From: Candidatus Saccharimonadales bacterium
GTDB lineage: Bacteria > Patescibacteriota > Saccharimonadia > Saccharimonadales > UBA10212
Assembly: GCA_035758565.1 (NCBI GenBank)
Contig: DASTXL010000002.1
Coordinates: forward strand, 275,118 to 339,117
Direction of reading: 5' to 3'
Length of the DNA stretch: 64,000 bases
In this document: positions 3,440 through 62,620 of the stretch, one piece after another
Layout of the letters: every line of letters starts with the position of its first letter
How positions within the stretch are numbered: the first letter of the stretch is position 1
Position numbers and translations under genes: made by a program
The notes under the pieces: model-generated
What the model saw: the letters and a program-made list of their open reading frames with translations, nothing else
The model's database searches: none
What the model was told of the DNA's origin: nothing

Positions 3440-3549
3440 TCGTCGAAGCTTGCGCCACTACCTCGTTTTGCCCGTGGGCAAAAGCTTCGGTTTATGGCTA
3501 CGCTTCTCCTCTCAAGATTTTAAACAGCTACACTTGGTTTAAAATCTTG
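3440..3549 (-). repeat. structured tRNA 5' leader element, copy 1 (abuts tRNA-Lys UUU)
   Basis: Hairpin, then AGAGGAG, GCC, CGAAGC-hairpin(TTTTGCC/GGCAAAA)-CGAGG, GGCGCAAGCTTCGACGA, then tRNA +1. Confidence 0.75.
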
Positions 3550-3655
3550 GGTTAGCTGCAGAGCCTGCAAAATAACACCTTACATTATCTGTTTTTTGGG
3601 CAAAAAGTCAACCGTCCGGCTTTTCAAAACGCTTAAGCCAACTTATGATTTATTC

Positions 3656-3895
3656 ATGCGCCTGAATAAATTTTTTCTTGCCTTACTACTTTCCGTACTG
3701 GCGGCTAGCAGTTCTTTTGCCTTACTTCGCCAGGATCACGCCGAAAGGTTCGGAAGCTGGGCAGAAGTTACTTCGATAGACAGAGTTTATATTGTTATCT
3801 GGTGGGTAGCCTTAGTCAATATGGTAGTTTGGCTTACGTTAAGCTGCATAAGTCTGGGTCATTTAATTAACAAAACCATTAACAAAGATAGCTAA
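3656..3895 (+). CDS. hypothetical membrane protein
   Basis: ORF 3596..3895; ATG at 3656 starts a hydrophobic segment. Confidence 0.3.
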   Translation: MRLNKFFLALLLSVLAASSSFALLRQDHAERFGSWAEVTSIDRVYIVIWWVALVNMVVWLTLSCISLGHLINKTINKDS

Positions 3896-4560
3896 AAAAT
3901 TGGCTCTTCTAGCTCGCTGTAACTTCGTTTTTTAAATTTATGCAAGCGGGCAGGGCGATGGCGCAAGCCTGTTAACTGCTGGGCGGTCGGCTCAATTATA
4001 TCCAAGGATAGAATTTTCTTTCTGAAGTTACGCTTGTCAACCGGGTGCCCTAAAATCACCTCGTAAACTTCTTGCAATTGGCTTAGTGTAAATAGTTTGG
4101 GTAAAAGCGAATAGGCCACATTGGAATAGCCAAGTTTGGCGCGCAACCTTTTGGTAGCGTAAGTCATAATAGAGTCGTGGTCAAAAGCAAGATCTTTGAC
4201 CCCTTTTTTTATACTCAGAATTTCAACTCCCGGCTGCAGGTGCTTTAACTTATCAATCGGAGCTAAAGCGAAATAGGCGACGCTTATAATATGTCCTCTT
4301 GGATCGCGCTTGGGATTGTCGAACGTGTATAGCTGTTCCATGAACAATCCACTAACACTGACCTTGTGTTTTAAAATTCGTTCTGCCGCTTCGGCGGTAG
4401 TTTCTTTTTGCCACAAAAAACCACCAGGCAAAGAAAGTTTGTCTTTGCCAGGAGACTGATCGCGTTTAACCAGCACAACTTTTAAGTTGCTGTCGTCGAT
4501 AGTAAAAACAGCCACATCGACAGTTATTTCTGGATTCGCTTTTGGCGGTCGTTGATCCAT
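3892..4560 (-). CDS. nrtR: Nudix-related transcriptional regulator (NrtR-like: Nudix domain plus C-terminal winged helix)
   Basis: Nudix-like fold (LPGGFLWQKETTAEAAERILKHKV), C-terminal wHTH-like region, divergent from pnuC-nadR. Start taken at MDQRPP. Confidence 0.65.
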   Translation of the reverse strand: MDQRPPKANPEITVDVAVFTIDDSNLKVVLVKRDQSPGKDKLSLPGGFLWQKETTAEAAERILKHKVSVSGLFMEQLYTFDNPKRDPRGHIISVAYFALAPIDKLKHLQPGVEILSIKKGVKDLAFDHDSIMTYATKRLRAKLGYSNVAYSLLPKLFTLSQLQEVYEVILGHPVDKRNFRKKILSLDIIEPTAQQLTGLRHRPARLHKFKKRSYSELEEPIF

Positions 4561-4690
4561 ATTAATTATCTTAACAAAAATGTACTTAATGTAAAATATA
4601 CAAAAACTAATTGACACTTAGTGTTATATACACAATAATGCATGTAGAGTTAGTGTAAAAAATATACTAACTAAGAAAAGGAGACATAAG

Positions 4691-5389
4691 ATGAAAACGT
4701 CAAAAAGGATAGAAGAATTTACCCACAATAGGGCCTTGCATATTTCCACTCTGGCAACCTTCGTTGCGGGGAATATTCTGGGATATTTATATCTCGGTGG
4801 CCTTAATTTTGTGCAAAGTTGGGGAGGGTCGTTCGCGGCGGTGATCGCCACCGCTTTCTTGGTTACCAAATCGCAGGGTTACTGGTTTTGGATGATTGTG
4901 AATGCCGGCCTTTGGATGACATTATTCTTGCACCAGGGTCTTCCAATGTTGGCCTGGCTGCAGCTAAGCATTCTATTACTGTCTATTTATGGCATGGCCC
5001 GCTGGGCGCTAGTTTCGCGTAAAATAATCGGCTACCTGGGAACCAACTTAGATAAATGGGGAGTTTTGTTTGCGACGGTTGTCTTTGTAGCTTCGATTGC
5101 GGCTTATTGGAATATGCCGGGTTATCGACTGACAAGTTGGTGGTGGGTGGAGTTTGGCAGCGTAGCTACCTCGATAGCCGCAATAGCTATGGACTCGTAT
5201 CGTTACAAACTTAACTGGTTAGCCTGGACGATTTCTAATGCTTTCTCTGCGCCGCTATTCCTGCATGGCAAAATGTGGGGACCGTTCGTAACATTGTTCA
5301 TGTATCAGGCAATAAACGTCTTGGGTTGGTTTGTCTGGCTCAACGAAGAAAAGAATATTTTGGCCGAGGAGGTAGCTGAAAATGCGTAG
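4691..5389 (+). CDS. pnuC: nicotinamide riboside transporter PnuC
   Basis: 232 aa multi-TM, W-rich PnuC-like sequence, followed by an overlapping nadR. Confidence 0.7.
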   Translation: MKTSKRIEEFTHNRALHISTLATFVAGNILGYLYLGGLNFVQSWGGSFAAVIATAFLVTKSQGYWFWMIVNAGLWMTLFLHQGLPMLAWLQLSILLLSIYGMARWALVSRKIIGYLGTNLDKWGVLFATVVFVASIAAYWNMPGYRLTSWWWVEFGSVATSIAAIAMDSYRYKLNWLAWTISNAFSAPLFLHGKMWGPFVTLFMYQAINVLGWFVWLNEEKNILAEEVAENA

Positions 5390-6353
5390 GGGATTAGTAT
5401 TCGGCAAGTTTATGCCGCTGCACCGCGGGCACGAACTATTAATCAATGCAGCGCTGTCTCAAGCAGACGATGTAACAATTGTGGTTTACGATTCTAAGCC
5501 TAAAGGCGACTATCCACCGATGCCAGTATCAAAGAGGTTGAAATGGCTGGGCGAACTCTATCCAGAAGCTAGCGCAATTGTTGCCGTGTATGATCCGCAT
5601 GGTGGCCAGCCGGACGCCGACGACGAAAAGTACGCTCAAGAATATGCCAACGGTCTGGCGTTCTTGGGTAAATTCGATCTGGTTTTTACCAGCGAACCCG
5701 GCTATGAAAAATTCGCTCAGGCGCTAGGCGCGCGGCATGTAATTGTTGATGCCGCGCGCGAGCTGGTGCCAATATCCGGTACAAAAATCCGCGAAGACGT
5801 TTATATGCACCGCGGCTGGATGGATCCTAGAGTATACGGCACTCTAATTCAAAAGGTTGTGTTCGTGGGCACCGAGTCAACAGGCAAATCAACGCTGGCC
5901 AAAAGAATGGCCGAAGAACTCGATACGGTCTGGACACACGAATACGGGCGCGAGCTCTGGACGGCGCAGGGAGGTGGAACTTTTCATGATCATTTGCCTA
6001 TGGCTCATCGCCAGTATGCCCGCGAACAGGCAGCTATGCATCAGGCCCACGGCTTTGTGTTTTGTGACACCAACGCCTGGACTACGCTGCAGTGGTCGCT
6101 GATGGCCTACAACGCGGCCGACGGCCGGCTAATAGATCTGGTAGAAAAAACCAAAGATGAATACGTTTGGATTCTTTGCGCGCCCGACTTTGGCTGGGTT
6201 GATGACGGCATCCGCGAACTGCATGGCAGAAAGGCCCTCGATTTTCACGAAGAACAAATAAAGGATCTCGATAAGCGAGGAATTAAATATTATCAAGTAT
6301 CTGGCTCGGTAGAAGAGCGGGTAGAGCAAGTTAAAAAAATCATCAAAGCTTAA
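5382..6353 (+). CDS. nadR: NadR-type NMN adenylyltransferase / ribosylnicotinamide kinase
   Basis: GKFMPLHRGHELLI (HxGH nucleotidyltransferase) plus a second domain with Walker A GTESTGKST. Confidence 0.8.
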   Translation: MRRGLVFGKFMPLHRGHELLINAALSQADDVTIVVYDSKPKGDYPPMPVSKRLKWLGELYPEASAIVAVYDPHGGQPDADDEKYAQEYANGLAFLGKFDLVFTSEPGYEKFAQALGARHVIVDAARELVPISGTKIREDVYMHRGWMDPRVYGTLIQKVVFVGTESTGKSTLAKRMAEELDTVWTHEYGRELWTAQGGGTFHDHLPMAHRQYAREQAAMHQAHGFVFCDTNAWTTLQWSLMAYNAADGRLIDLVEKTKDEYVWILCAPDFGWVDDGIRELHGRKALDFHEEQIKDLDKRGIKYYQVSGSVEERVEQVKKIIKA

Positions 6354-6396
6354 GCAGTTAATTTATAGTCCGCTTCGTGCCATGATTTAAAGCAAG

Positions 6397-7827
6397 ATGA
6401 GGCGGTACAAAAGAACCACCTTGATAACAGTTGGCTGCCTGGCGGCGCTAGCCGGGCTGGGTCTGGCGCGCAAGCTGCAATTCTTTCCGCCGGAGTGGAT
6501 TTTTATTTTTTGGCCGGCGCTACTCATTCTTCGGCGCCGTACAGCTCTCGGCCTGATTTTGGTAGTAATTTTAGGTTTAGGATTAGGACTCTGGCGCGGC
6601 GCGGCATATAGCCATAAGCTGGCCGAGCTAAAATCGCTAGCTACCCATCCGGTGACAATTGAAGCCACTGCGCTCACAGACTCTGTTTATGGCAACAATT
6701 CGCAGATACAATTTACCGCTAATCAAATTCAGCTAGTCGAACCCTATCAAAAACCACTGGCTGGCACATTTAAAATCAGCGGCTTTGGTGTGCATATGAT
6801 TTATCGAGGCGATCGCGTCGAAGTTTCTGGCAAACTATATCCAACTCGTGGCTCTAATCAAGCGACCATTGCTTATGCTCAGCTGGCCGAAATTTCTACC
6901 GGGCATAGTTTCTTTGCCGATATTTCTAGAAAGTTCACAACTGGCATGCAGAACGCTTTGCCGGAACCTTTAGCTAGTTTTGGGCTTGGTCTTTTGGTGG
7001 GATTGCGAACAATAATGCCGCAGGACATTCTGAATCAATTAACTGCTGTTAGTTTAGTTCACATAGTGGCGGTTAGCGGTTACAACCTAACGATTATTGT
7101 TCGTGGTATTGCCAGGTTAAAAATCCGCTCCAAATACCAAAGAACAATGTTGTCACTGGCTTTAATCGGCCTATTTGTGATGGTGACCGGTTTCAGCGCT
7201 TCAATTATTAGGGCAGCTTTGGTAAGTGCTCTAAGCTTGTGGGCGGCCTACTATGGGCGTCGGGTTAAACCGATGGTGCTTATCAGCTTTGCGGCCGCTC
7301 TGACCGGGCTTATGAACCCATTTTATGTATGGGGCGATTTGAGCTGGTACCTGTCTTTCTTAGCCTTCTTTGGAATTTTAATAATCGCGCCAACTATTCA
7401 GGCGCGGTTGTTTAGCCGGCAGCCAAAATTAATAACAGCTGTGTTGCTAGAAACATTGAGTGCCGAGCTCATGACTCTGCCGTTAATAATGATGAGCTTT
7501 AGTCAGTTGTCGATAATATCTCTGCTCGCTAATCTGTTAGTTGTGCCGCTTGTGCCACTGGCGATGTTACTCGCGGCGACGGCTGCCTTTGTGGGCGCGT
7601 TACTACCTCAACTAGCTGGTTGGTTTGCCTGGCCGGCCGTGGTGTTGCTAACTTATATGCTCGACGTGGTGCATATTCTTGCCAATATTCCATCGGTGCT
7701 ACTACATACATCTATCAGTGTGAATTTAATGCTGACATTCTACGTAATTCTTTTGCTTAGCGTATTGACTATGAGGCGTCGAGCCCGCATGAAATTATCC
7801 GAGATTGAAACTGTGCTAATAAGGTAG
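6397..7827 (+). CDS. comEC: ComEC/Rec2 family DNA uptake channel (no beta-lactamase domain)
   Basis: 476 aa polytopic membrane protein with an N-terminal DUF4131-like region and a competence domain (LVHIVAVSGYNLTI). Confidence 0.75.
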   Translation: MRRYKRTTLITVGCLAALAGLGLARKLQFFPPEWIFIFWPALLILRRRTALGLILVVILGLGLGLWRGAAYSHKLAELKSLATHPVTIEATALTDSVYGNNSQIQFTANQIQLVEPYQKPLAGTFKISGFGVHMIYRGDRVEVSGKLYPTRGSNQATIAYAQLAEISTGHSFFADISRKFTTGMQNALPEPLASFGLGLLVGLRTIMPQDILNQLTAVSLVHIVAVSGYNLTIIVRGIARLKIRSKYQRTMLSLALIGLFVMVTGFSASIIRAALVSALSLWAAYYGRRVKPMVLISFAAALTGLMNPFYVWGDLSWYLSFLAFFGILIIAPTIQARLFSRQPKLITAVLLETLSAELMTLPLIMMSFSQLSIISLLANLLVVPLVPLAMLLAATAAFVGALLPQLAGWFAWPAVVLLTYMLDVVHILANIPSVLLHTSISVNLMLTFYVILLLSVLTMRRRARMKLSEIETVLIR

Positions 7828-7861
7828 CCATAACACCTTAAAATATGTTAAAATAAGTGTA

Positions 7862-8593
7862 ATGTCTGGTCACAGCAAATGGTCTACAATCAAGCGCCAA
7901 AAAGAAGCCAACGACGCTAAACGCGGCGCTATGTTCACTAAGCTCGGCAATCAAATTGCCGTGGCTGCTCGCAGTGGCACAGATCCAGCCACGAATTCGG
8001 CTTTGGCGATGATTATTGATAAAGCTCGCAAATCCGGCATGCCAAATAGCAACATCGAACGTTCCATCCAGCGTGCCGGCGATAAATCAGCTGCCGCAGT
8101 CGAAGAAATTATGTACGAAGGTTACGGCCCGGGCGGCGTAGCCATCATGGTGGAGTGTGCTACTGATAATAAAAACCGCACCTACCCGGAAGTCCGCTTG
8201 GCGTTTAGCAAAAACGGCGGCAACATGGCCGAACCCGGCAGCGTGGCTTTTCAATTTAGCCGCAAGGGCGTGATTCGCGTAAAGGGAGTCGGCGATGATG
8301 TCGAACTAGCAGCTATTGAAGCCGGCGCCGACGATGTTTTCGCGGAAGAAGAAACCGGCGAGACGGTTGTTCAGACCGCTCCGACCGATCTTGCGAAAGT
8401 TCGTGACCAGCTGAAAGCAGACGGCCTGGAAGTAACCGATGCCGAACTAACTTTTGTACCGAACAACACTATCGAAGTTTCAGATAAGGAAGTTGCCCGT
8501 AAAGTCATGAATCTCATGAACGCTCTCGAGGATCTTGACGACGTGTCTAATACTCACACCAACTTCGACATCGCCGAAACAGTAGAGGTGTAA
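7862..8593 (+). CDS. yebC: YebC/PmpR family DNA-binding regulator
   Basis: MSGHSKWSTIKRQKEANDAKRG N-terminus is diagnostic. Confidence 0.9.
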   Translation: MSGHSKWSTIKRQKEANDAKRGAMFTKLGNQIAVAARSGTDPATNSALAMIIDKARKSGMPNSNIERSIQRAGDKSAAAVEEIMYEGYGPGGVAIMVECATDNKNRTYPEVRLAFSKNGGNMAEPGSVAFQFSRKGVIRVKGVGDDVELAAIEAGADDVFAEEETGETVVQTAPTDLAKVRDQLKADGLEVTDAELTFVPNNTIEVSDKEVARKVMNLMNALEDLDDVSNTHTNFDIAETVEV

Positions 8594-8595
8594 AT

Positions 8596-9069
8596 ATGAG
8601 AGTGCTTGGCATCGACCCCGGAACGGGAATCCTGGGTTTTGGCGTGATCGACTGCCAGAAAGGCAAGAATATTTTAGTTGACGCTGGCGTAATCCGTACG
8701 CCAGTCAAAGAAGACGATGCCGTGCGTCTGCAAACAATCTTCGAAGAACTAAACGATATTATTGCTGCCACTAAGCCAGACCAAATGTCGATAGAGAAGT
8801 TATATTTTTCTCAAAACGTGACTACGGCTATGACAGTCGCGCAGGCTCGCGGCGTCGCAATTCTCGCCGGCAAATTAGCAGGTCTAGAAATTGCTGAGTA
8901 TACGCCGCTGCAAATCAAGCAAGCGATAACCGGCTACGGCAAAGCCGACAAAAAACAAATGCAAGAAATGGTACGCGTCCAGCTTGGCTTAAAAGAGGTG
9001 CCCAAGCCGGATGACTGTGCCGACGCCCTGGCCGCCGCCATAACCCACGCCTCGTGTAGAATTAAATAA
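8596..9069 (+). CDS. ruvC: crossover junction endodeoxyribonuclease RuvC
   Basis: MRVLGIDPGT...; yebC-ruvC-ruvA order. Confidence 0.9.
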   Translation: MRVLGIDPGTGILGFGVIDCQKGKNILVDAGVIRTPVKEDDAVRLQTIFEELNDIIAATKPDQMSIEKLYFSQNVTTAMTVAQARGVAILAGKLAGLEIAEYTPLQIKQAITGYGKADKKQMQEMVRVQLGLKEVPKPDDCADALAAAITHASCRIK

Positions 9070-9070
9070 G

Positions 9071-9643: not shown

Positions 9644-9644
9644 T

Positions 9645-10022
9645 ATGGGAAGCCCTGAAACATCTGGCAGCGAACAATCGCCGGCACCACCCACAGAAGA
9701 AGAACTAGAGGCTATTCAAAGAGTCGTAGACCTAGGCCACTTTAACAGAGTGCAGGCCGAAATTGATGTGCTGGGTGCAGCCAGAGCGGCCGCCTGGCGC
9801 CTTGGTGTACCAGCAGATGAAGCGCCAAGCGAAACCACCACTGAACCTAGTCGTTCGTTAAGCTCGCGCCAAGAACAAAAAGAGTTCAACATGCGCGTAG
9901 CCAAACTGGCTAACGAAGCAATGCAATCAGAGCAGGGCACAGAAGAGTACTTGCGTGGCCTGCCGCCAAGCTCAGAACGCGACAAGTTACTGGAGGCTTT
10001 CGAAGACCCTAAAGCTGCCTAA
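9645..10022 (+). CDS. hypothetical acidic protein
   Basis: 125 aa, compositionally biased, translationally coupled to ruvA. Confidence 0.35.
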   Translation: MGSPETSGSEQSPAPPTEEELEAIQRVVDLGHFNRVQAEIDVLGAARAAAWRLGVPADEAPSETTTEPSRSLSSRQEQKEFNMRVAKLANEAMQSEQGTEEYLRGLPPSSERDKLLEAFEDPKAA

Positions 10023-10027
10023 AATCT

Positions 10028-10879: not shown

Positions 10880-10882
10880 AAG

Positions 10883-12067: not shown

Positions 12068-12092
12068 AAGAACTCCCAAAATAGAGTTCTTT

Positions 12093-12117
12093 TGGTGGGG
12101 CTGGTTGGATTTGAACC
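12093..12117 (-). repeat. duplicate of the 3' terminal 25 nt of tRNA-Ile2 (T-arm half, acceptor, CCA)
   Basis: tggtggggctggttggatttgaacc is identical at 12093-12117 and 12138-12162. Confidence 0.85.
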
Positions 12118-12137
12118 CGACTATGATAATGAAGTTT

Positions 12138-12213
12138 TGGTGGGGCTGGTTGGATTTGAACCAACGACCAATCAGTTATGAGCCGACTGCTCTAACCCCT
12201 GAGCTACAGCCCC
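12138..12213 (-). tRNA. tRNA with CAU anticodon, probably tRNA-Ile2 (lysidine)
   Basis: 76-nt cloverleaf, loop CTCATAA. Variable/T region TTGGTCGTTGGTTCAAATCC resembles E. coli ileX. tilS is present in the window. Confidence 0.7.
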
Positions 12214-12266
12214 TCGTCACAACGACAGAACTAGTATAACAGATAGCCTAAGGTATAATAATCCTT

Positions 12267-12716: not shown

Positions 12717-12720
12717 CCAA

Positions 12721-12816: not shown

Positions 12817-12923
12817 CCCCACAAAATCAGCGAAGCGTATTTTGTGGGGTAGAGGAGCAGCCTAACCGTAAACCGAAGCTTTTGCTGAAAAGCAAAACGA
12901 GGTAACGGCGCAAGTTGCGACGA
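12817..12923 (+). repeat. structured tRNA 5' leader element, copy 2 (abuts tRNA-fMet)
   Basis: ccccacaaaat...attttgtgggg hairpin, AGAGGAGCA, CGAAGC-hairpin(GAAA loop)-CGAGG, GGCGCAAGTTGCGACGA. Confidence 0.75.
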
Positions 12924-12998
12924 CGCGGGGTGGAGCAGTGGCAGCTCGCGTGGCTCATAACCACGAGGTCGTAGGTTCGAATCCTACCCCCGCTACCA
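12924..12998 (+). tRNA. initiator tRNA-fMet(CAU)
   Basis: CGCGGGGTGGAGCAG... close to E. coli tRNA-fMet; 1:72 mismatch; encoded CCA. Confidence 0.9.
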
Positions 12999-15164: not shown

Positions 15165-15375
15165 AAGTTAAAGTTTTTGAGCACTAACCGGCTTTGCGAG
15201 AGCCGGTTTTTCTTTACTCGCCTAGTCTGCGAGCCTTGAGGTAGGGCGAGTGGGTAGAGTGATAAGCTTGAAAAGCCAAACAAAAAACGCGCCAACTTTA
15301 TTGCGCGATTTAATGCTCGGCTGAAAGGTAAACTTCTGCGCGCAGCTTTGAATATGAGTCCTCTTTTGTACTTTT

Positions 15376-15452
15376 TGGTAGCAGCGACTGGATTCGAACC
15401 AGTGACCGCAGGCTTATGAGTCCTGTGCTCTAACCAACTGAGCTACGCTGCC
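15376..15452 (-). tRNA. elongator tRNA-Met(CAU)
   Basis: 77-nt cloverleaf very similar to E. coli metT (GGC.. GTAGCTCAGTTGGTTAGAGCAC); encoded CCA. Confidence 0.85.
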
Positions 15453-15471
15453 ACAAAAAAGTACAAAACTT

Positions 15472-15497
15472 GTTCTAACCAACTGAGCTACCCTGGC
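15472..15497 (-). pseudogene. orphan tRNA 5' fragment (acceptor 5' strand plus D-arm) fused to leader copy 3
   Basis: GCCAGGGTAGCTCAGTTGGTTAGAAC follows the leader end GCGACGC and stops in the D-arm. Confidence 0.6.
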
Positions 15498-15610
15498 GCG
15501 TCGCAATTTACGCCTCTGCCTCGTTTTGCTATTCGCAAAAACTTCGGCTTGTGGCTAGATTGCTCCTTACAAATTTTACAAGCAAGACAATCACTTGTCT
15601 TGTAAAATTT
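15498..15610 (-). repeat. structured tRNA 5' leader element, copy 3
   Basis: Hairpin with agacaagtgattgtcttgct apex, AAGGAGCA, GCC, CGAAGT-hairpin-CGAGG, GGCGTAAATTGCGACGC. Confidence 0.7.
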
Positions 15611-15673
15611 AAAAATCAACAGGGGGAGTATAGCATTTTAAACTGTTAGTTGCCAGACTGCTAAAATAAGCTT

Positions 15674-32066: not shown

Positions 32067-32143
32067 TGGTCGGGGATAGAGGACTCGAACCTCCGACCTC
32101 GCGGTCCCAAACCGCGCGCGCTAGCCAACTGCGCCAATCCCCG
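32067..32143 (-). tRNA. tRNA-Pro(UGG)
   Basis: 77-nt cloverleaf, loop TTTGGGA, encoded CCA. Confidence 0.9.
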
Positions 32144-32258
32144 TCGTCGGAATTTGCGGCTTTTCCTCGTTTTGCGGTTCCGCAAAAGCTTCGGTCTAAG
32201 CCTAGATTCCTCCTCTCAATTTAACAAAAATTGCTAAAGCGGATTTTTGTTAAATTGG
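32144..32258 (-). repeat. structured tRNA 5' leader element, copy 4
   Basis: Hairpin, AGAGGAGGA, GGC, CGAAGC-hairpin-CGAGG, GCCGCAAATTCCGACGA. Confidence 0.75.
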
Positions 32259-32300
32259 TTTAAGAACTTGGCAAATTATAGCAAAGAACAGAGGTAATAG

Positions 32301-33155: not shown

Positions 33156-33213
33156 AGTGCTTAAGTTAGACTAATTCTACCAGCTTTTAGTAAGTTTAAA
33201 AAGAGAGTTCTGC

Positions 33214-33228
33214 TATAATTACCCCTGT
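33214..33228 (+). promoter_or_regulatory. stable-RNA promoter motif TATAATTACCCCTGT (tRNA-Pro CGG)
   Basis: 15-mer identical to 42147-42161; lies 44 nt upstream of the tRNA. Confidence 0.5.
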
Positions 33229-34695: not shown

Positions 34696-34773
34696 TGGGG
34701 CGAAAGATGGGACTTGAACCCACGGCCTCCGGAGCCACAATCCAGCGCTCTAACCAACTGAGCTACTTCCGCC
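34696..34773 (-). tRNA. tRNA-His(GUG) with encoded G-1
   Basis: Loop TTGTGGC; extra 5' G opposite discriminator C; encoded CCA. Confidence 0.9.
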
Positions 34774-34890
34774 ACGTCCTCCCGTACGCCATTATCTCGT
34801 TTTGCCGCAGTAGCGTCAAAAACTTCGATTTATGGCTGCGGTCGTCCTCTCAATTTTGCAAAATCAGCGTAAGATGATTTTGCAAAATTG
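34774..34890 (-). repeat. structured tRNA 5' leader element, copy 5 (divergent 3' end)
   Basis: Hairpin, AGAGGACGA, GCC, CGAAGT-hairpin-CGAG, GGCGTACGGGAGGACGT. Confidence 0.7.
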
Positions 34891-36122: not shown

Positions 36123-36199
36123 TGGTACCCCCGGCAAGATTCGAACTTGCGACCTTGAGCTTAGAAGTCTCCTGCTCTATCCAACTGAGCTACGGGGGC
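36123..36199 (-). tRNA. tRNA-Arg(UCU)
   Basis: 77-nt cloverleaf, loop CTTCTAA. The anticodon stem has only 3 Watson-Crick pairs (27:43 and 31:39 mismatched). Confidence 0.75.
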
Positions 36200-36313
36200 T
36201 CGTCGAAGCTTGCGGCCTTGTCTCGTTTTGCCTGCTCGGCAAAAGCTTCGACCTTGGCCTAGGCTTCTCCTCTAAAATTTGTGAGCAAGACAACTACTTG
36301 CCTCACAAATTTT
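36200..36313 (-). repeat. structured tRNA 5' leader element, copy 6
   Basis: Hairpin with aggcaagtagttgtcttgct apex, AGAGGAGAA, GGCC, CGAAGC-hairpin-CGAG, GGCCGCAAGCTTCGACGA. Confidence 0.75.
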
Positions 36314-36372: not shown

Positions 36373-36468
36373 CCCCACAAAATAAATTTTGCAGGGAAAC
36401 CCTAGCTCTATAGGAAAAAGAGCAGCGAGCTTGGTTTTGCTTAAGGCAAAACTCGGCTTTGCCGACGA
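36373..36468 (+). repeat. degenerate orphan copy of the leader element (no tRNA follows)
   Basis: ccccacaaaataaattttgcaggg hairpin ... AAGAGCA ... GGTTTTGcttaagGCAAAAC ... GCCGACGA. The opposite strand carries AGAGGAG next to the same hairpin. Confidence 0.4.
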
Positions 36469-36504
36469 GCGATGAGAAAAAACATAGGTTTTGTCTCATA
36501 TTGG

Positions 36505-36579
36505 TGGTGCGGGATGGGGTAGTCGAAACCCCGTCTCAAGTTTGGAAAACTTGCATATTAACCGTTATACGAATCCCGC
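36505..36579 (-). tRNA. tRNA-Gly(UCC)
   Basis: 75-nt cloverleaf, loop TTTCCAA, 4-nt variable loop, encoded CCA. Promoter TATAATCACCTCTGT lies upstream (36593-36607 on the + strand). Confidence 0.85.
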
Positions 36580-36668
36580 GCGTTAGGCGATAACAGAGGT
36601 GATTATAGCAGAATCCATCTGTCACTTAAACTTTTTAGGCGTACAATAAAACTAAAGGGGGATAAAAT

Positions 36669-42135: not shown

Positions 42136-42146
42136 CGTACACTTGG

Positions 42147-42161
42147 TATAATTACCCCTGT
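42147..42161 (+). promoter_or_regulatory. stable-RNA promoter motif TATAATTACCCCTGT (tRNA-Arg UCG)
   Basis: Identical to 33214-33228; lies 16 nt upstream of the tRNA. Confidence 0.5.
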
Positions 42162-44706: not shown

Positions 44707-44744
44707 TTTACAAAAACAGGGGTGCATGTTAATATTTCACCTGT
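44707..44744 (+). promoter_or_regulatory. promoter upstream of the leader and tRNA-Lys(CUU)
   Basis: TTTACA, 17 nt, TAATAT, then ttcaCCTGT. Confidence 0.5.
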
Positions 44745-44751
44745 CCTAAAT

Positions 44752-44866
44752 AAAAATTTGCGAGACAAGTAATTGTCTTGCTCGCAATTTTTAAGAGGAG
44801 CAACCTAGCCTAAAAACGAAGCTTTTGTCTATAGACAAAACGAGTTATAGGCGCAGGTTGCGACGA
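44752..44866 (+). repeat. structured tRNA 5' leader element, copy 7
   Basis: Hairpin with agacaagtaattgtcttgct apex, AGAGGAGCA, GCCT, CGAAGC-hairpin-CGAG, AGGCGCAGGTTGCGACGA. Confidence 0.75.
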
Positions 44867-44943
44867 GGGCCATTAGCTCAGTTGGTTAGAGCAGCGGCCT
44901 CTTAAGCCGCGTGTCCGGGGTTCGAGTCCCCGATGGCCCTCCA
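44867..44943 (+). tRNA. tRNA-Lys(CUU)
   Basis: 77-nt cloverleaf, loop CTCTTAA, encoded CCA. Confidence 0.9.
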
Positions 44944-52811: not shown

Positions 52812-52918
52812 CAGAAACATAAGACAAGTAATTGTCTTGCTTGTGTTTCTGGAAGGAGCAATCTAGCGCTAGGCGAAATTTTATTTATAAAATAGAGCAA
52901 GCGTGTAAATTGCGACGT
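52812..52918 (+). repeat. structured tRNA 5' leader element, copy 8 (variant hairpin 2)
   Basis: Hairpin with agacaagtaattgtcttgct apex, GAAGGAGCA, GCGC, CGAAATTTTAT-tta-ATAAAAT, GCGTGTAAATTGCGACGT. Confidence 0.7.
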
Positions 52919-53133
52919 GGTCCCATCGTCTAGCGGTTAGGACACCGGGTACCTTCACCCCACAAAACAAGTTTTGCGGGGACCCCGATCATTCCGGCAA
53001 CAGGGTGAGAACTGCCATTTGGCAGTTCGCAAGGCCACAGGCGCGACGGCGCCGAGGAGGGCCCGACCGAATTTTCAGCAGAAAATTACGGGTGGGTCGA
53101 TTCCGAATCGAACGTATACAATTAGTCGACAAT
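52919..53133 (+). pseudogene. disrupted tRNA-Glu copy: intact 5' half, then degenerate pieces of the remainder separated by hairpin-containing inserts
   Basis: 52919-52950 is identical to 53134-53165. CATTCCGGCAACAGGGT and GGGTCGATTCC match later parts of tRNA-Glu. Confidence 0.55.
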
Positions 53134-53208
<75 letters not shown>

Positions 53209-54922: not shown

Positions 54923-55061
54923 CCATAATCGTGTACAATAGGCTTAAGAGCGCTTACGCTTATGAGACAAACCTATGGTTTTTCTCATCGCTCGTCGGCA
55001 AAGCCGACCCATACACGGGCAAGCTCGCCGCTCTTTTCCTTTTATTAAAAACGAGTGGGCA

Positions 55062-57059: not shown

Positions 57060-57077
57060 CTTGGTAGAATAAGTTAA

Positions 57078-59261
57078 GTGCAAGATTTACTAGCTGAGCT
57101 TAATGATGAGCAGCGGCGGGCGGTCGAGGTAACCGAGGGCCCGCTTTTAATTCTGGCTGGTGCGGGTAGCGGCAAAACCAAGACCCTGACCCACAGGATT
57201 GCTTACATATTGGAGCAGCATAAAGCTACGCCTTTTAATATTTTGGCCGTGACATTTACAAATAAGGCTGCCGGCGAAATGCGCGAGCGCATCTGGAAGC
57301 TTACACAAGGTGGTAATGCCGGCGATGACATTCCGCGCGGCTTCATGCCTTTTATGGGTACTTTCCACAGCATTTGCGTGCGGTTGCTGCGTCAGGACGG
57401 CGAGGCCTTTGGCGTTCCGCGTAACTTCGTAATTTGGGATGAGGCCGACCGCCAAGCGGCCGTTAAACAAGCCGCTCGGGCGCTAAGTCTTGATGAAAAG
57501 CAGTTTCCAGCGCGCATGTTGAGCTCGTTGATTTCCAGCGCCAAAAACGAAATGGTTAGCCCGGCCGAGTTTGCAGCAACCGCCGGTAATACCCCAGCCG
57601 CCCAAGCGGTTGCCAAGGTTTATCCGGCGTACGAACGACTGTTGCGCGAGGGCGCCGCATTAGACTTTGACGATTTAATTAGCCGTACAGTACAGATGCT
57701 GAAAGATCACAAACAAATCCGCGACAAATGGCAACAGCAATTCAAGTACGTAATGGTTGACGAGTATCAAGATACCAACGCCGCTCAGTACCGCCTGGTG
57801 AAACTTTTAACCGGACCGCATAAAAATATTGCCGTGGTTGGCGACGACTGGCAAAGTATTTATTCTTGGCGCGGCGCCGACTTTAGAAATATTCTTAATT
57901 TTGAAAAAGATTATCCAGGTTGTGTGGTTATCAAGCTTGAGCAAAACTACCGTAGTACCAAGAATATCTTGGAGGCCGCCCATAAAGTTATAAGTCAAAA
58001 CCGCCAGCGCAGTGATAAAAAACTGTGGACGGCCAGCGCCGCCGGATCTCCGGTACAGGTTTTGCCGGTTGCCAGTGAGCGGTCCGAGGCCGAAACTATT
58101 GCCCGCCGTATAAAAAACGCCGTTGATATGCGCGCTCGCAATTATCACGATTTTGCTGTTCTTTACCGCACCAACGCTCAGGGCCGCGCTATTGAAGAAG
58201 TTCTGCTCCACTACGGTTTGCCGTACAGAATTGTTGGCGGGGTGCGTTTTTACGACCGCAAAGAGATCAAAGATATTGTTGCCTATTTACGCTTAATTTA
58301 TCAGCCGGACGATACGGCGGCCTTTGAGCGAGTAGTAAACGTGCCGACTCGGGGCATTGGTCCACGCTCTATAGAAGTTTTTAACGAGTGGCGGCAAACT
58401 AATAACTATTCCTTAAGCCAAGGCTTAGCTATGGTTGAGCAATGCGCTGAACTGACACCCAAAGCTCGGCTTGGCCTAGTTCAACTTGCTGATATTGTTG
58501 CGAGTTTTCGTGAGCAGATGAGCGAACAAATCCCATCGGTCTTGATTGACAGTTTAGTCAAAAGGTTGAACTATCTTAATTATTTGCAAGACGGTTCGCC
58601 GCAAGGGGATGCCCGCGCCGAAAACGTCCGTGAGCTTTTGAGCGTGGCTGCCGAGTACCAAGACGTGGGTCTTGATGATTTTTTGGAAGAGGTTTCGCTA
58701 ATTACTGACCTAGAACGCGCTAACCAAGAACCCGACTCAATCGTATTAATGACTCTGCACTCTGCTAAGGGTTTGGAATTTCCGGTTGTTTTTATGACTG
58801 GCCTTGAGGAATCCATTATGCCTCACAGCCGAGCACTTTATGATGCCAACGAAATGGAAGAAGAGCGCCGGTTAATGTACGTAGGAATGACCCGCGCTCG
58901 GGAGGAACTATTTTTGAGCTACGCCACTGAGCGAACTTTGTTTGGTGGTCGCCAGCATAATCCGCCGAGCCGGTTTATTTCCGATGCTGGAATAACTTCG
59001 GTAGCCGAGCCGGTTTATGCACAGTCTGGCTTTGGACAAAGAAAGTTTGAATCATCTTCTGCTAATGATTACTCACCGCTTGCTCCTTCAAGTGATGAGC
59101 CGCGCTATGTGCCAGAACTTGAAGAAGGCGATGGCGTGCGTCACCAAATATTTGGCGTTGGCACGGTGTTGGAATTAGATGGCGATACGGCTACGATTTA
59201 CTTCAAGGGCAAGGGTAGCAAGCGCCTAAACATATCTTTTGCCCCGATTGAAAAGTTATGA
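57078..59261 (+). CDS. pcrA: ATP-dependent DNA helicase PcrA/UvrD
   Basis: AGAGSGKT, DEYQDTN, TLHSAKGLEF, VGMTRA. Confidence 0.9.
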   Translation: MQDLLAELNDEQRRAVEVTEGPLLILAGAGSGKTKTLTHRIAYILEQHKATPFNILAVTFTNKAAGEMRERIWKLTQGGNAGDDIPRGFMPFMGTFHSICVRLLRQDGEAFGVPRNFVIWDEADRQAAVKQAARALSLDEKQFPARMLSSLISSAKNEMVSPAEFAATAGNTPAAQAVAKVYPAYERLLREGAALDFDDLISRTVQMLKDHKQIRDKWQQQFKYVMVDEYQDTNAAQYRLVKLLTGPHKNIAVVGDDWQSIYSWRGADFRNILNFEKDYPGCVVIKLEQNYRSTKNILEAAHKVISQNRQRSDKKLWTASAAGSPVQVLPVASERSEAETIARRIKNAVDMRARNYHDFAVLYRTNAQGRAIEEVLLHYGLPYRIVGGVRFYDRKEIKDIVAYLRLIYQPDDTAAFERVVNVPTRGIGPRSIEVFNEWRQTNNYSLSQGLAMVEQCAELTPKARLGLVQLADIVASFREQMSEQIPSVLIDSLVKRLNYLNYLQDGSPQGDARAENVRELLSVAAEYQDVGLDDFLEEVSLITDLERANQEPDSIVLMTLHSAKGLEFPVVFMTGLEESIMPHSRALYDANEMEEERRLMYVGMTRAREELFLSYATERTLFGGRQHNPPSRFISDAGITSVAEPVYAQSGFGQRKFESSSANDYSPLAPSSDEPRYVPELEEGDGVRHQIFGVGTVLELDGDTATIYFKGKGSKRLNISFAPIEKL

Positions 59262-59707
59262 AATTCTTGGGAAGACTATCTTTTATTTTGTCGCTGCCGC
59301 TACTTAGGGCGTATTTGCGACGAAGCAGGCGGGCTTACGGTCTGATAGTTTGCGGCAACGAAGTTGTTTTGGTCAAAGGCTGGCTCGGTCGCCAAAAATG
59401 GCAATTTCCCGGTGGCGGTACGAGGCACGGCGAAACCTCACCAGAAACCATAGTTCGCGAAATCAAGGAGGAGGTCGGGCTAGACATTGATTCAAAGAGC
59501 CTAAAATACATCGGGAGTGGCCGCTGGCAGACCGATGGCCTCGGTCACGACTACGACCTTTATTTATGCAAGTTCCCCAGTAAGAAATCACTAAAAACCA
59601 GAAGACCCGAGCTAATAGGGGCCGCTTGGGTAAAAGTTTCGGACCTAGACGCTACAAATTGTTCATCAGAAATCATCGAAGCGTTGCATAAGGTTAATTT
59701 GTTATAA
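59258..59707 (+). CDS. NUDIX hydrolase
   Basis: Nudix box GGGTRHGETSPETIVREIKEEVG. Confidence 0.7.
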   Translation: MKFLGRLSFILSLPLLRAYLRRSRRAYGLIVCGNEVVLVKGWLGRQKWQFPGGGTRHGETSPETIVREIKEEVGLDIDSKSLKYIGSGRWQTDGLGHDYDLYLCKFPSKKSLKTRRPELIGAAWVKVSDLDATNCSSEIIEALHKVNLL

Positions 59708-59770
59708 TAGGACTGCTTTTAAGGTGTCTGTCATTGACCTTGCGGTGGGCGCCCAAAGAGTTATTAGCTC

Positions 59771-61033
59771 ATGAGATTTATTCCAAGCTTAATTTCTAAT
59801 CCGTTAAGTACGGCGCGCAAGTTTGGCCGCCATCATGTGCACCAACGGCCTTACATTGTGCCCATATTAGGTATTCTTTTGGGGATCGCTATCGTTGGCG
59901 GTGTAATTTTAAGTCGCCCGACGCAAAGCTTGCGTCCTAGTGATTCGCACGTAGTTTATTTGTCTGATAACGGCCAGCGTGAAACGCTTGATACCAAAGC
60001 CGCTACTGTTGGCGAGCTAGTGGGCAAGCTGCCTCTGCATCTTATGCCGCAAGATGTAGTGGAACCTTCGCTTGACACTAAAATTGTGCAGGATAATTTT
60101 AGGATTAATGTTTATCGCGCCCGCCCGGTAACGGTCGAGGATAATGGCGTAAAGACCGTGACGATTACCGCTCAAAAAAGTCCGCGAGTGGTTGCCGAAA
60201 ACGCTGGTTTAACGGTTTACCCAGAGGACAATGTAAGCTTTGCACCCGGCAGTATTCAAGAGAATATTATCGGCGAGAAAGTAGTGGTTGATCCCGCCAC
60301 GCCAGTACAGTTCAGTCTGTATGGCACCCCTCTAACAATACGTACCCATGCTAAAACAGTCGCCGCCTTGCTTGAGGAAAAAAATGTAAAGCTATCCAAA
60401 GGCGACACTGTTCAGCCGGCTGGCGATACGCCAGTTACGCCGGGTATGCAAATCTTTGTTAATCGCAACGGCACTACAACTATTACCGCCCAAGAGCAAA
60501 TCCCAGCTCCGGTTCAAACAGTTCCGGACCCGAACCTAACTCTCGGCGCGACAGCGGTCCGCCAAGCTGGAACTCCGGGCGTTAAGGCTGTGACTTATCA
60601 AATCACTACTATCAATGGAGTCCAGACTAGCAAATCCATCATTCAGCAGGTTATTGTCAGCCAGCCAGTGGCGGAAATTCTGGCCCAGGGCACAAATGTT
60701 GATGTGGCGGGCAACAAAACTTCTTTGATGGCCGCCGCTGGTATTGGTCCTAGTGATTACGGCTACGTGGATTATATTGTCAGCCACGAATCCGGCTGGT
60801 GCCCGACTAAAGCCCAGGGCGAGGGTTACTGTCCGATTACTCCAGACAATTCCATGACGCCGAACGGCTATGGTCTTTGTCAGTCAACCCCGGGCTACAA
60901 GATGCAGAGCGCCGGCGCCGACTGGGCCACTAACCCAATTACCCAGCTGAGATGGTGTGACGGCTATGCTGCTGGCCGCTACGGCAGTTGGTATAGCGCC
61001 TATTTGCATTGGGCCGCTTATCATAATTGGTAA
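59771..61033 (+). CDS. DUF348/G5-domain protein with a C-terminal lysozyme-like (transglycosylase) domain (RpfB/YabE-type architecture)
   Basis: N-terminal TM, DUF348-like repeats, G5-like region (VRQAGTPGVKAVTYQ), C-terminal HESGW...YGLCQ motif. Confidence 0.65.
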   Translation: MRFIPSLISNPLSTARKFGRHHVHQRPYIVPILGILLGIAIVGGVILSRPTQSLRPSDSHVVYLSDNGQRETLDTKAATVGELVGKLPLHLMPQDVVEPSLDTKIVQDNFRINVYRARPVTVEDNGVKTVTITAQKSPRVVAENAGLTVYPEDNVSFAPGSIQENIIGEKVVVDPATPVQFSLYGTPLTIRTHAKTVAALLEEKNVKLSKGDTVQPAGDTPVTPGMQIFVNRNGTTTITAQEQIPAPVQTVPDPNLTLGATAVRQAGTPGVKAVTYQITTINGVQTSKSIIQQVIVSQPVAEILAQGTNVDVAGNKTSLMAAAGIGPSDYGYVDYIVSHESGWCPTKAQGEGYCPITPDNSMTPNGYGLCQSTPGYKMQSAGADWATNPITQLRWCDGYAAGRYGSWYSAYLHWAAYHNW

Positions 61034-61140
61034 ACCTTGAATGACAACCATCCGGTTTTCCTTCAACGCCGCTTTCGGAATGAATCCGAATCCGGCAATT
61101 GCCGGATCGCGGCTACTACCTTTCCCTTATAATTAATATA

Positions 61141-61971
61141 ATGAACGATATTCCTAAGAAGTCTTTAGGGCAACACTGGCTGCGTGACCCTCAGGTTTTG
61201 GAAGCCATTGTGGATTTAGCCATGATAGAACCCGCCGACACAGTGCTAGAAATTGGACCCGGCCTCGGCACCCTTACTCATTATTTGGCTAGGCAGGCTC
61301 GACACGTCGTTGCCGTGGAGTTCGATGAGGTATTGGCAGCCAAACTTCCGCAAAGAGTTCAGGCAGCAAACTTAAGCGTGGTTCAGGAAGATATTTTAAA
61401 GTTTGACCTACTGAGTCTACCCGACCGTTATAAGGTAGTCGCCAATATTCCATATTACCTAACGAGCAACTTGTTGCGTGTTTTAAGCGAGTCATTGAAT
61501 CCACCAAGACTTATGGTGCTTTTGGTTCAGAAAGAAGTCGCCGAACGGATTTGCGCCAAGCCAGGCCAAATGAGTTTGCTGTCGGTAGCGGTGCAGCTAG
61601 ATTACAGCTGCGAGCTCGGACCGGTCGTGCCTGCCGACATGTTCGAACCGCCGCCCAAAGTCGATTCACAAGTGGTGGTTTTGCGGCAACATTTTCAGCC
61701 GTTATTCAAACAGCTTGATAGGCAATTATTTTTTAGAGTGGTTAAAGCCGGTTTTTCGGAAAGGCGCAAAAAAGTACGCAGCAGTCTAGCCGCCGGCCTG
61801 CATCTAGAAAAGGGGCAGGTAGACCAGATCCTTTTAAGCGCCGAAGTCAACGGCGATCTTAGGGCTCAGAACCTGAGCCTAGCGCAGTGGCACCGTATTT
61901 ATATTGAGGTCGCCGCGATGCAAAGCCTTAGAAATTTTGTTACCTCCCCTGCTCCCCGCAAAAAAGCTTGA
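61141..61971 (+). CDS. rsmA: 16S rRNA (adenine1518/1519-N6)-dimethyltransferase
   Basis: KSLGQHWL, LEIGPGLG, NIPYY. Confidence 0.9.
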   Translation: MNDIPKKSLGQHWLRDPQVLEAIVDLAMIEPADTVLEIGPGLGTLTHYLARQARHVVAVEFDEVLAAKLPQRVQAANLSVVQEDILKFDLLSLPDRYKVVANIPYYLTSNLLRVLSESLNPPRLMVLLVQKEVAERICAKPGQMSLLSVAVQLDYSCELGPVVPADMFEPPPKVDSQVVVLRQHFQPLFKQLDRQLFFRVVKAGFSERRKKVRSSLAAGLHLEKGQVDQILLSAEVNGDLRAQNLSLAQWHRIYIEVAAMQSLRNFVTSPAPRKKA

Positions 61972-62021
61972 CGTGTTAAGTAATTGTCCTTAAGATTAGT
62001 TCATAAATAAGGATAAACACT

Positions 62022-62411
62022 ATGGCCAAAAGTAAGTTTCCTCCCCTGCTCCACTTGACGTACGTTTTACAACAAGCATCTGAAGAACTCCTACTTCGCG
62101 AAGCAGGGGTATCCTTAAGCCATGCCAGAATAATGAGCGGGCTAAGTCCTTCTATTGCTAAATCACAGCGCCAATTGGCGGTCGAGCTAAGACAAACCGA
62201 GGCGAATATTAGCCGCCAGCTGCAAGCAATGAAAAAATTGGGGCTGGTTAGCATTACCAAAAATAAAAAAGATGGCCGCCAGCGTGACGTCAAGCTAACG
62301 GCCAAAGGTTCGGGCAAATATCAAAAGGCCGAGGAACTGCTGGTTAAAGAACAAAGTAATCTGGTTCGGCTAGTCGACTTTGACGCCCAAAAACTACTTA
62401 CGAATCTCTAA
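62022..62411 (+). CDS. MarR family transcriptional regulator
   Basis: wHTH with QRQLAVELRQTEANISRQLQAMKKLGLV. Confidence 0.7.
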   Translation: MAKSKFPPLLHLTYVLQQASEELLLREAGVSLSHARIMSGLSPSIAKSQRQLAVELRQTEANISRQLQAMKKLGLVSITKNKKDGRQRDVKLTAKGSGKYQKAEELLVKEQSNLVRLVDFDAQKLLTNL

Positions 62412-62499
62412 ACGTACAGTTGGAAATTATTGACCTTTTGTGCTATAATAACAGTAGTCGAGGTGGTTAATTCATCCACTCGATGGAACTTGAGTTTTC

Positions 62500-62620
62500 A
62501 AATTTTCTAAGCCAGCGAGCGGCTTTGCCGACTCGAGCGCTTAGGAAATTTAGAGGAAGAACAAAGTCGTAAGTTGAAGTCTTGATATTCAAAACGAAAC
62601 AACGGCGCAAGTTCTGACGA
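62500..62620 (+). repeat. structured leader element, copy 9, abutting the tmRNA 5' end
   Basis: Long hairpin, AGAGGAAGA, GTCG, TGAAGTCTTGAtatTCAAAACGA, CGGCGCAAGTTCTGACGA, then GGGGCTGA. Promoter TTGGAA-18-TATAAT at 62420-62449. Confidence 0.7.

Follow-up and report, generated by a model that had tools for sequence, protein, structure and literature searches.

Bacterial precursors of tRNAs (pre-tRNAs) and of the transfer-messenger RNA (pre-tmRNA) ordinarily begin with a 5' leader, which lies between the promoter and nucleotide +1 of the mature RNA, is co-transcribed with it and ends at the cleavage site of ribonuclease P (RNase P). Short and without conservation, such leaders are unpaired close to the site and are treated as disposable single-stranded tags; we know of no bacterial pre-tRNA leader with a conserved, covarying fold. 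Here we describe leaders which resemble the ordinary ones in position, in their probable co-transcription and in their end point, but which are ~110-125 nucleotides (nt) long, are conserved both in sequence and in fold and are paired up to nucleotide -1. They were detected in a 64,000-nt stretch of contig DASTXL010000002.1 (assembly GCA_035758565.1, positions 275,118-339,117, forward strand), which we call the window. Our best reading is that they represent a previously undescribed RNA family, a structured leader at the 5' side of pre-tRNAs and pre-tmRNA in Saccharibacteria, and we infer that this RNA works most like an ordinary leader removed by RNase P. At the level of sequence comparison, the data given below establish a conserved, independently folding RNA domain which is fused with single-nucleotide precision to tRNA and tmRNA 5' ends.

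Several described systems are similar to the leader in one respect or another. In the MALAT1/mascRNA and MEN-beta systems, an RNase P cut at a downstream tRNA-like structure makes the 3' end of a non-coding RNA. There, as here, a structured upstream RNA abuts a tRNA-shaped substrate, and one cut yields a 3' and a 5' end. However, these systems are eukaryotic, exist at one locus each and have a tRNA-like part which is a by-product, whereas the present leader is multi-copy and is followed by genuine tRNAs or tmRNA, and the likeness is in topology only. In E. coli, 3'ETS-leuZ is a spacer-derived small RNA of a tRNA operon, a case in which the by-product of a tRNA precursor could be a functional, stable RNA. 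In contrast to our leader, RNAs of this type are base-pairing sponges from single loci and have no conserved multi-helix fold repeated across tRNA genes. In an engineered RNase P riboswitch, leader structure beside the cleavage site controls the access of RNase P (PMC7897497). The present leader is likewise predicted to sequester nucleotides -1 to -5, but the riboswitch is synthetic and ligand-dependent by design, and the alternative pairing of the leader is without covariation support.

GOLLD, ROOL and drum are structured bacterial candidate RNAs of unknown function, the first two of which are often located near tRNAs and maybe co-transcribed with them (PMC5737381). Unlike the leader, GOLLD and ROOL are far larger (581 nt in the case of ROOL), are often prophage-borne and are not fused at +1. 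The drum motif has its own Rho-independent 3' terminator and is associated with particular nearby protein genes (PMC5737381); it was rejected because the leader passes directly into the tRNA, the proteins encoded nearby are unrelated and there is no Rfam match. None of the three candidate RNAs matches the leader in our Rfam scans. These scans used Rfam 15 (4227 models, including ribozymes, riboswitches, T-box, drum and RNase P). With gathering scores, only tRNAs and the tmRNA were reported in the window and no leader was matched, while in permissive scans (two copies at E up to 10, the whole window at E up to 0.5) the leader strand had no match beyond chance level (E above 0.8). The initial annotation of the window had not recognised a known RNA family either. 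In the literature on tRNA leaders, RNase P, ribozymes and small RNAs of the candidate phyla radiation (CPR) and Saccharibacteria we found no description of the leader, and according to a TM7x transcriptome preprint no small RNAs have been validated so far. Because Rfam and literature gave no counterpart, ordinary leaders have no conserved fold and the likeness to MALAT1/mascRNA is topological only, we rate the leader as a putative new RNA class which seems to be connected with tRNA maturation.

Leader copies in the window and in related genomes

The window contains 12 tRNA genes and one tmRNA gene according to ARAGORN and Rfam. Nine leader copies were aligned with MAFFT and their consensus fold was predicted with RNAalifold; it comprises an A/U-rich hairpin (P1) and an irregular rod with the helices P2 to P5, which corresponds to the core in the list below. 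A covariance model of the core (R1) finds exactly nine copies in the window with scores of 63.2-93.8 bits, the next best hit having 12.3 bits. These are nine of the ten copies which were proposed in the initial annotation. The tenth, an 'orphan' at 36373-36468, reaches 9.3 bits with R1 (E about 5) and turned out to be a member of a different element, motif 2, which is described in the last section. The nine copies, with their strand, R1 score and target, are as follows:

3440-3549 (-), leader copy 1: P1 3513-3549, core 3440-3512 (AGAGGAG...CGACGA); 93.8 bits, fold z-score -5.2; directly adjoins tRNA-Lys(UUU) 3363-3439
12817-12923 (+), leader copy 2: P1 12817-12849, core 12851-12923; 89.5 bits, fold z-score -4.5; adjoins an initiator-type tRNA-Met 12924-12998 (C1xU72 mismatch read from sequence)
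15498-15610 (-), leader copy 3: P1 15571-15610, core 15498-15569; 84.4 bits; adjoins only a 26-nt 5' fragment of another tRNA (15472-15497), the intact tRNA-Met 15376-15452 being located 45 nt downstream of the leader
32144-32258 (-), leader copy 4: P1 about 32217-32258, core 32144-32216; 91.3 bits; adjoins tRNA-Pro(UGG) 32067-32143; extended -10 box TGCTATAAT at 32275-32283
34774-34890 (-), leader copy 5: P1 34851-34890, core 34774-34850 (AGAGGAC...GGACGU, first P2 pair flipped to C-G); 71.7 bits; adjoins the encoded G-1 (34773) of tRNA-His 34696-34772
36200-36313 (-), leader copy 6: P1 36274-36313, core 36200-36273; 86.8 bits; adjoins tRNA-Arg(UCU) 36123-36199
44752-44866 (+), leader copy 7: P1 44752-44792, core 44794-44866; 92.7 bits, fold z-score -6.0; adjoins tRNA-Lys(CUU) 44867-44943; promoter-like site TTTACA-17-TGtTAATAT at 44707-44735 (promoter scan)
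52812-52918 (+), leader copy 8, which diverges most from the others: P1 52812-52851, core 52852-52918; 63.2 bits; adjoins 32 nt (52919-52950) which exactly repeat the 5' part of tRNA-Glu, the complete gene for tRNA-Glu (53134-53208) being located 215 nt downstream of the leader, past an insert
62500-62620 (+), leader copy 9: long P1 62500-62551, core 62552-62620; 69.9 bits, fold z-score -4.2; adjoins the tmRNA 62621-63011 (RF00023, 88.2 bits)

Reading all nine copies bore out the common order of motifs which had been described for them, and each core ends with GACGA, GACGU or GACGC before a tRNA-like 5' end. A fixed junction to nucleotide +1 had also been claimed. This holds for seven copies, while copies 3 and 8 are joined to 5' fragments of tRNAs only.

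To find further copies, GTDB species genomes and metagenome contigs were scanned with one pattern each. A 30-nt degenerate pattern from the 3' half of the leader matched 43 loci in GTDB species genomes, in 38 of which R1 confirms 39 copies; the other five loci belong to unrelated phyla and are chance matches of the pattern. Of the 38 loci, all but three carry the label Saccharibacteria, Saccharimonadales or Saccharimonadia; the remaining three bear the labels Parcubacteria or Verrucomicrobiia (taken as given). A pattern from the 5' half alone was applied to metagenome contigs of unknown taxonomy and matched at least 120 of them. R1 then finds at least 123 copies on these contigs, and they include the 3' half, which the pattern had left unspecified. 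Together with the window, the set comprises at least 171 copies (9 plus at least 162 further ones), 160 of the 171 sequences being distinct. The leader is thus conserved far beyond its source genome.

About 85% of the further copies adjoin a tRNA (18 amino-acid types) or tmRNA. The distance to the tRNA predicted by ARAGORN is zero in 107 of the 171 copies and up to 5 nt in 27 more, the copies at tRNA-His being at a distance of one because G-1 is encoded. A tmRNA follows in 11 copies (four of them confirmed by Rfam), seven copies are cut by a contig end, and in about nine a tRNA 5' fragment is followed by an insert and then by an intact tRNA, which leaves a handful unexplained. All leaders which adjoin a tRNA or tmRNA are on the strand of that gene and end at its +1, and all 107 tRNAs at distance zero have an encoded CCA. 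Over-represented among the leader-linked tRNAs are those for Met (20), Ala (15), His (14), Lys (14), Arg (13) and Ser (13). When single-copy genes are compared, the leader is found at tRNA-His 14 times and at tmRNA 11 times, but only one to three times at each of the tRNAs for Asp, Phe, Tyr and Trp. Since the proteins encoded next to the leader loci are unrelated housekeeping proteins, there is no dedicated partner gene nearby.

Junction statistics and promoter scans place the leader between the promoter and +1 of the tRNA or tmRNA, on the strand of the gene. In the window, extended -10 boxes (TGnTATAAT-like) are located 17-35 nt upstream of P1, and a CCTGT motif is often present 3-5 nt past the -10 box of tRNA genes, with or without a leader. 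Shared extended -10 sites are at 33211-33228, 42144-42161, 15619-15635, 36602-36610, 12233-12241, 44727-44735 and 32275-32283. For leader copy 6 no separate promoter is obvious; on its strand, it is preceded by tRNA-Gly 36505-36579. The four leaderless tRNAs of the window have the same promoter type as the leader-bearing genes, with short leaders of 19-52 nt, and a terminator-like hairpin follows each tRNA unit. Among the relatives, 61 of 162 upstream regions have an extended -10 box, compared to a background of 5.5%, and the boxes are most frequent at 50-80 nt before the core, a position upstream of P1. A T-box leader, which would have a specifier loop, a T-box sequence and a terminator/antiterminator and would precede genes for aminoacyl-tRNA synthetases or amino acids, was considered and rejected: a tRNA or tmRNA follows the leader in every case, no terminator separates the leader from +1 and Rfam gives no T-box match.

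The number of 13 tRNA and tmRNA genes in 64 kb is several times above expectation, a Saccharibacteria genome being estimated at roughly 1 Mb with about 45 tRNAs.

Consensus fold, covariation and the closing helix

In the consensus fold, P1 is followed by the strand AGAGGA, the 5-bp helix P2, a small loop nUA opposite GYAR, and P3 (GCC/GGC). Then follow a 2x1 loop, the 3-bp helix P4, the loop GAAGC opposite CGA, and the hairpin P5 (UUUUGC/GCAAAA). In P2, the five bases which directly follow AGAGGA pair with the five which directly precede GACGA, in variants such as GCAAC/GUUGC, GAAGC/GCUUC, GGAAU/AUUCC and AGAAC/GUUCU. The internal loops of the rod are purine-rich and invariant. Minimum-free-energy folds of all nine window copies take the shared two-domain shape, with z-scores of -4.2 to -6.3. 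In predicted structures of full precursors, leader and cloverleaf fold independently of each other.

In the alignment of the nine copies, 91.5% of the cells pair and double changes are present at 14 of 23 pairs. None of 500 shuffles reaches either value, and sliding the partners lowers the pairing to 33-41%. The larger set is in line with this: 93% are paired, and 124 double-change cells contrast with 39 expected, a value which again was not reached in any of 500 shuffles. P1 covaries as well, as seen in 80 sequences, for example with AU in 35 and UA in 35 of them at one pair, so that strong covariation extends over P1 to P4. G-U pairs (39) outnumber A-C combinations (6), which indicates that the selected molecule is the strand carrying the tRNA. 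This supports the view of the initial annotation that the element is functional at the level of RNA and on the tRNA strand.

Its description of the structure was correct in part. Both the covariation in the GCC/GGC helix, now P3, and the persistence of pairing in the short hairpin P5 despite sequence changes were confirmed in the consensus alignment, while the main closing helix P2 had been missed. A pseudoknot formed by CGAAGCUU and AAGCUUCG had been proposed in addition. Across 39 relatives these segments are pairable to 84%, yet there is no compensatory change. Moreover, the CGAAGCUU/AAGCUUCG pairing and P2 cannot coexist because both use the same 3' strand, and hence the pairing cannot form a pseudoknot with P2; the proposal is thus not supported. 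The pairing may be an alternative conformer or a coincidence.

Below P2, AGAGGA faces GACGA in antiparallel orientation, and a purine-rich, non-canonical helix closes the rod and ends at nucleotide -1. We infer the pairs G2.A77, A3.G76, G4-C75, G5.A74 and A6.G73, that is, two tandem G.A steps around one G-C pair. A contact between core nucleotide 2 (the first G of AGAGGA) and leader nucleotide -1 is supported by their covariation. The combinations are G/A in 128 copies, A/C in 13, G/U in 9, A/U in 8, A/A in 5 and U/A in 4 (Fisher p = 7e-14), and the exceptions are scattered over many tRNA types and contigs. In two cases C75 is changed to U, with retention of a G-U pair with G4. Because the closing helix reaches nucleotide -1, the rod ends exactly on the first acceptor pair of the tRNA; in tRNA-His it meets the G-1:C73 pair. 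No pairing rule was found between nucleotide -1 and the discriminator base, which are complementary in just 32 of 107 cases.

The GGAG/CGAC module of the closing helix is found again within P1 of many relatives, and a third G.A-capable step is located between P4 and P5. Kink-turns were considered on account of G.A/A.G-capable dinucleotides at three places, and were rejected because the alignments contain no adjacent 3-nt bulge. The sequence AGAGGAG could also be taken for a Shine-Dalgarno sequence of a small open reading frame (ORF). This was rejected as well, since AGAGGAG is not followed by a start codon and since core nucleotide 2 covaries with the last leader nucleotide.

Possible roles of the leader

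The preference for tmRNA and tRNA-His and the engagement of nucleotide -1 lead us to favour a role in cis in precursor handling, in which the 5' end is protected and the RNase P site is fixed or gated. We hold this tentatively, our confidence stopping a little short of even. The whole unit would be transcribed together with the tRNA or tmRNA, and RNase P would cut where the two helices meet, giving the mature 5' end and one intact leader of ~115-130 nt. At the repeated tandem-G.A modules, a protein or RNase P itself could dock. Acting mainly in cis, the leader would shield the 5' end and fix or gate the cleavage site, gating would set when leader-bearing tRNAs and tmRNA mature, and after its release the leader might remain in the cell as a stable by-product. 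Should 5' maturation be controlled or guided by the leader, this would be the first natural case in which RNase P is controlled from within a leader, and it would open a view on the regulation of translation capacity in reduced genomes. In any case, one domain of ~110 nt is fused precisely to many tRNAs and tmRNA across an ultra-small, host-dependent lineage, and the corresponding stretches now look like empty intergenic DNA or spurious ORFs in annotations.

Several observations weigh against this reading. A helix which reaches nucleotide -1 should hinder the bacterial RNase P holoenzyme, the protein of which binds single-stranded leader. The structured leader is dispensable for many tRNAs: it is missing from four of the 13 genes in the window, and in 156 related loci just 4 of 125 bystander tRNAs have it, as opposed to 9 of 13 genes in the window. 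Where an insertion has separated a leader from its tRNA, the R1 score is still 60-84 bits, which fits a role independent of the tRNA in cis. Finally, near-identical copies are present on different tRNAs within one metagenome-assembled genome (MAG; L016, L018 and L041), and nearest-neighbour leaders share the tRNA type in only 25% of cases. Both the near-identity within a MAG and the weak link to tRNA type fit intragenomic spread.

The conservation of uncoupled copies speaks for the main rival explanation, in which the functional product is the leader. It would be an abundant small RNA, ~115-130 nt long, for which the tRNA or tmRNA provides only the RNase P signal for 3' end formation, as mascRNA does for MALAT1. 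Such an RNA would be trans-acting and might, for instance, serve a protein which binds its tandem-G.A modules as scaffold or sponge. With a 3' end sealed in a helix and hairpins at the 5' side, the released RNA should resist nucleases, and the recurrence of the GGAG/CGAC module inside P1 of many relatives is also in line with such a function. Further, the copy number varies widely between genomes and the copies are homogenised within them, as expected if the dosage of a trans-acting RNA matters. On the other hand, no candidate partner protein or target was identified, the uncoupled copies could not obtain their 3' end from RNase P, and the non-random association with tRNA-His and tmRNA suggests gene-specific roles in cis. 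We consider this explanation doubtful, though it deserves serious weight; should the leader be a stable released RNA, it would probably be among the most abundant unknown RNAs in these cells. The uneven occupancy of tRNA genes and the near-identical leaders on Arg, Lys and Leu tRNAs of one MAG could alternatively reflect a structured repeat which is selfish or neutral. Recombination or gene conversion would carry this repeat from one tRNA gene to another, the promoter common to these genes and the conserved D-arm of the tRNAs offering the homology, and its presence would be tolerated since RNase P cuts it off. The similarity of leaders has only a weak connection with tRNA type, and chimeric junctions such as the foreign tRNA 5' fragment behind copy 3 are what such spread could leave. 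Nevertheless, unpaired invariant positions and compensatory changes over 160 distinct sequences argue for selection on the RNA itself, orientation and junction are constant, and there are no inverted terminal repeats or target duplications. In addition, 2.9 million viral contigs gave zero matches to the leader patterns, and tmRNA and tRNA-His bear the leader far more often than other single-copy genes. A purely selfish or neutral repeat thus appears decidedly improbable to us. A repeat of the type of miniature inverted-repeat transposable elements or repetitive extragenic palindromes was rejected, since every leader adjoining a tRNA or tmRNA is on the strand of that gene and at +1, and the two ends of the leader are not mutual inverted repeats.

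The remaining explanations concern the cleavage site and the DNA. It is tempting to speculate that the leader is a natural RNase P gate in which nucleotides -1 to -5 are held in the non-canonical helix until a signal arrives, which would be a protein, a metabolite or Mg2+; a new class of ribozymes, which makes the 5' cut itself at its own 3' end, would be the more extreme alternative. We regard this reading as improbable. With such a gate, this host-dependent bacterium could keep pre-tRNAs and pre-tmRNA in store until their maturation is called for. The idea of a cis-acting ribozyme which cleaves at its own 3' end, and thus generates the tRNA 5' end without RNase P, is very unlikely in our view. 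It could account for the highly conserved purine-rich loops, for the exact junction to +1, for the three helices joining at the scissile site and for the tandem G.A pairs which flank P2 as they do at stem II of the hammerhead. Yet no Rfam ribozyme family matches, the sequence downstream of the junction varies freely, and known small ribozymes leave a 5'-OH and not the 5'-phosphate of a mature tRNA. Leaderless tRNAs in the same genome would still need RNase P, and its RNA is encoded on a related contig with a leader: L072 carries a class-A RNase P RNA at 3858-3980 (+) (RF00010, 86.9 bits, E = 4e-26), of which the first 126 positions are present before the contig end, 1.4 kb from a leader-tRNA unit. 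This RNase P RNA has no leader of its own. The window, which is part of a genome, contains no RNase P RNA and no rnpA, and phmmer searches for rnpA or rpmH in the window and the related loci, again partial genomes only, found none. CPR genomes generally retain a diverged RNase P RNA (PMC8172020). The cis-acting cleavage element suggested in the initial annotation is therefore disfavoured by the RNase P RNA of L072, by the leaderless tRNAs with the same promoter type and by the lack of a ribozyme match in Rfam. Its other suggestion, a processing or quality-control module, is hypothetical. Among individual ribozymes, the hammerhead was rejected because CUGANGA is missing, only the GA/GA flank of one helix is common and the cut would be expected on a different strand. 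Ribozymes which cleave at their own 5' end (those resembling the hepatitis delta virus ribozyme, hatchet, glmS) were rejected because the cut would be needed at the 3' edge of the element and Rfam gives no match. Lastly, the A/T-rich and partly palindromic P1 and the many rearrangement scars at tRNA loci of this lineage could point to an element acting at the DNA level, for instance an operator behind the promoter or a recombination site made of structured single-stranded DNA. Here G-U pairs tolerated on one strand only, the fixed orientation and place between promoter and +1, and a closing pair which uses the last transcribed leader nucleotide all argue to the contrary, and we give this explanation hardly any credence.

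Further elements at tRNA loci

The 'orphan' mentioned above led to a second conserved structured element of ~100 nt, motif 2, with the consensus AGGGAAAAGAGC-AGCGAGC ... CGGCUUUGCCGAC-GAGCGAUGAGAAAAACC..GGUUUGUCUCAU. It belongs to no Rfam family. The two copies in the window are both antisense to their neighbours:

36398-36502 (+), motif 2, the former 'orphan': R2 score 100.4 bits; antisense to the flanking tRNA-Gly and tRNA-Arg
54959-55055 (-), second copy of motif 2: pgk-tpiA spacer (flanking genes with Pfam PGK and TIM); R2 score 92.2 bits; 81% identity in blastn

In relatives, motif 2 is located 5-8 nt upstream of tRNAs, upstream of the 23S rRNA 5' end, or directly upstream of the structured tRNA leader (type 1). 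Examples are L039 4592-4692, L015 5535-5640, L024 7811-7901, L069 3088-3177 and L095 2592-2656, and it is also present in L023, L056 and L125. In L015, the tandem-G.A step GCGAG/CGAGC is replaced by the Watson-Crick paired GACCAG/CUGGUC. The reverse complement of motif 2 has a boxA-like UGCUCUUU.

A third element, which we call element E, is found at the tRNA-Glu locus. It starts with TGAGAAnTGCC..GGCAnTTCGCAAGG, is ~130-150 nt long, contains covarying hairpins and always adjoins partial tRNA sequence, in either orientation. Its sites are:

52919-53133 of the window
5366-5535 of L082
1701-1880 of L130
886-1063 of L163
seven more sites

At four loci the order is leader, duplicated tRNA 5' segment (25-38 nt), element E and intact tRNA, and the intact tRNA has a -10-like box 7-17 nt before its +1. 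Element E looks like a small element targeting tRNA genes, and its presence would explain the duplicated 5' segment of tRNA-Glu behind leader copy 8. It belongs to no Rfam family. Neither element E nor motif 2 has a match among the viral contigs searched with the leader patterns, and a phage origin of all three elements was rejected on these grounds. A group I intron at the tRNA-Glu locus was also rejected, since Rfam gives no intron match and the downstream tRNA is complete.

Two tRNA-Met loci show rearrangements of other kinds. On the minus strand, tRNA-Met 15376-15452, the intact tRNA downstream of leader copy 3, has the arms of a perfect 13-bp inverted repeat on its two sides (15456-15468 and 15364-15376) and is followed by an anticodon-arm-like piece, GAGGACTCATA. 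In appearance, the region 15364-15497 (-) suggests that one tRNA gene has been nested in another or has replaced it. At tRNA-Met 12138-12213 (-), the 25 nt of the 3' end (12138-12162) are exactly repeated 20 nt downstream, at 12093-12117. The repeat in 12093-12162 resembles the kind of scar left by integration at a tRNA 3' end.

Finally, the hairpin CCCCACAAAA..UUUUGnGGGG is present at 12817-12849 (P1 of the initiator-tRNA leader), at 36373-36396 (beside motif 2) and at 52958-52981 (tRNA-Glu pseudo-copy). Similarly, the 13-mer CGGCTTTGCCGAC is found in both motif 2 copies (36454-36466 and 54994-55006) and in P1 of the tmRNA leader (62520-62532). Short modules are thus common to otherwise different elements.

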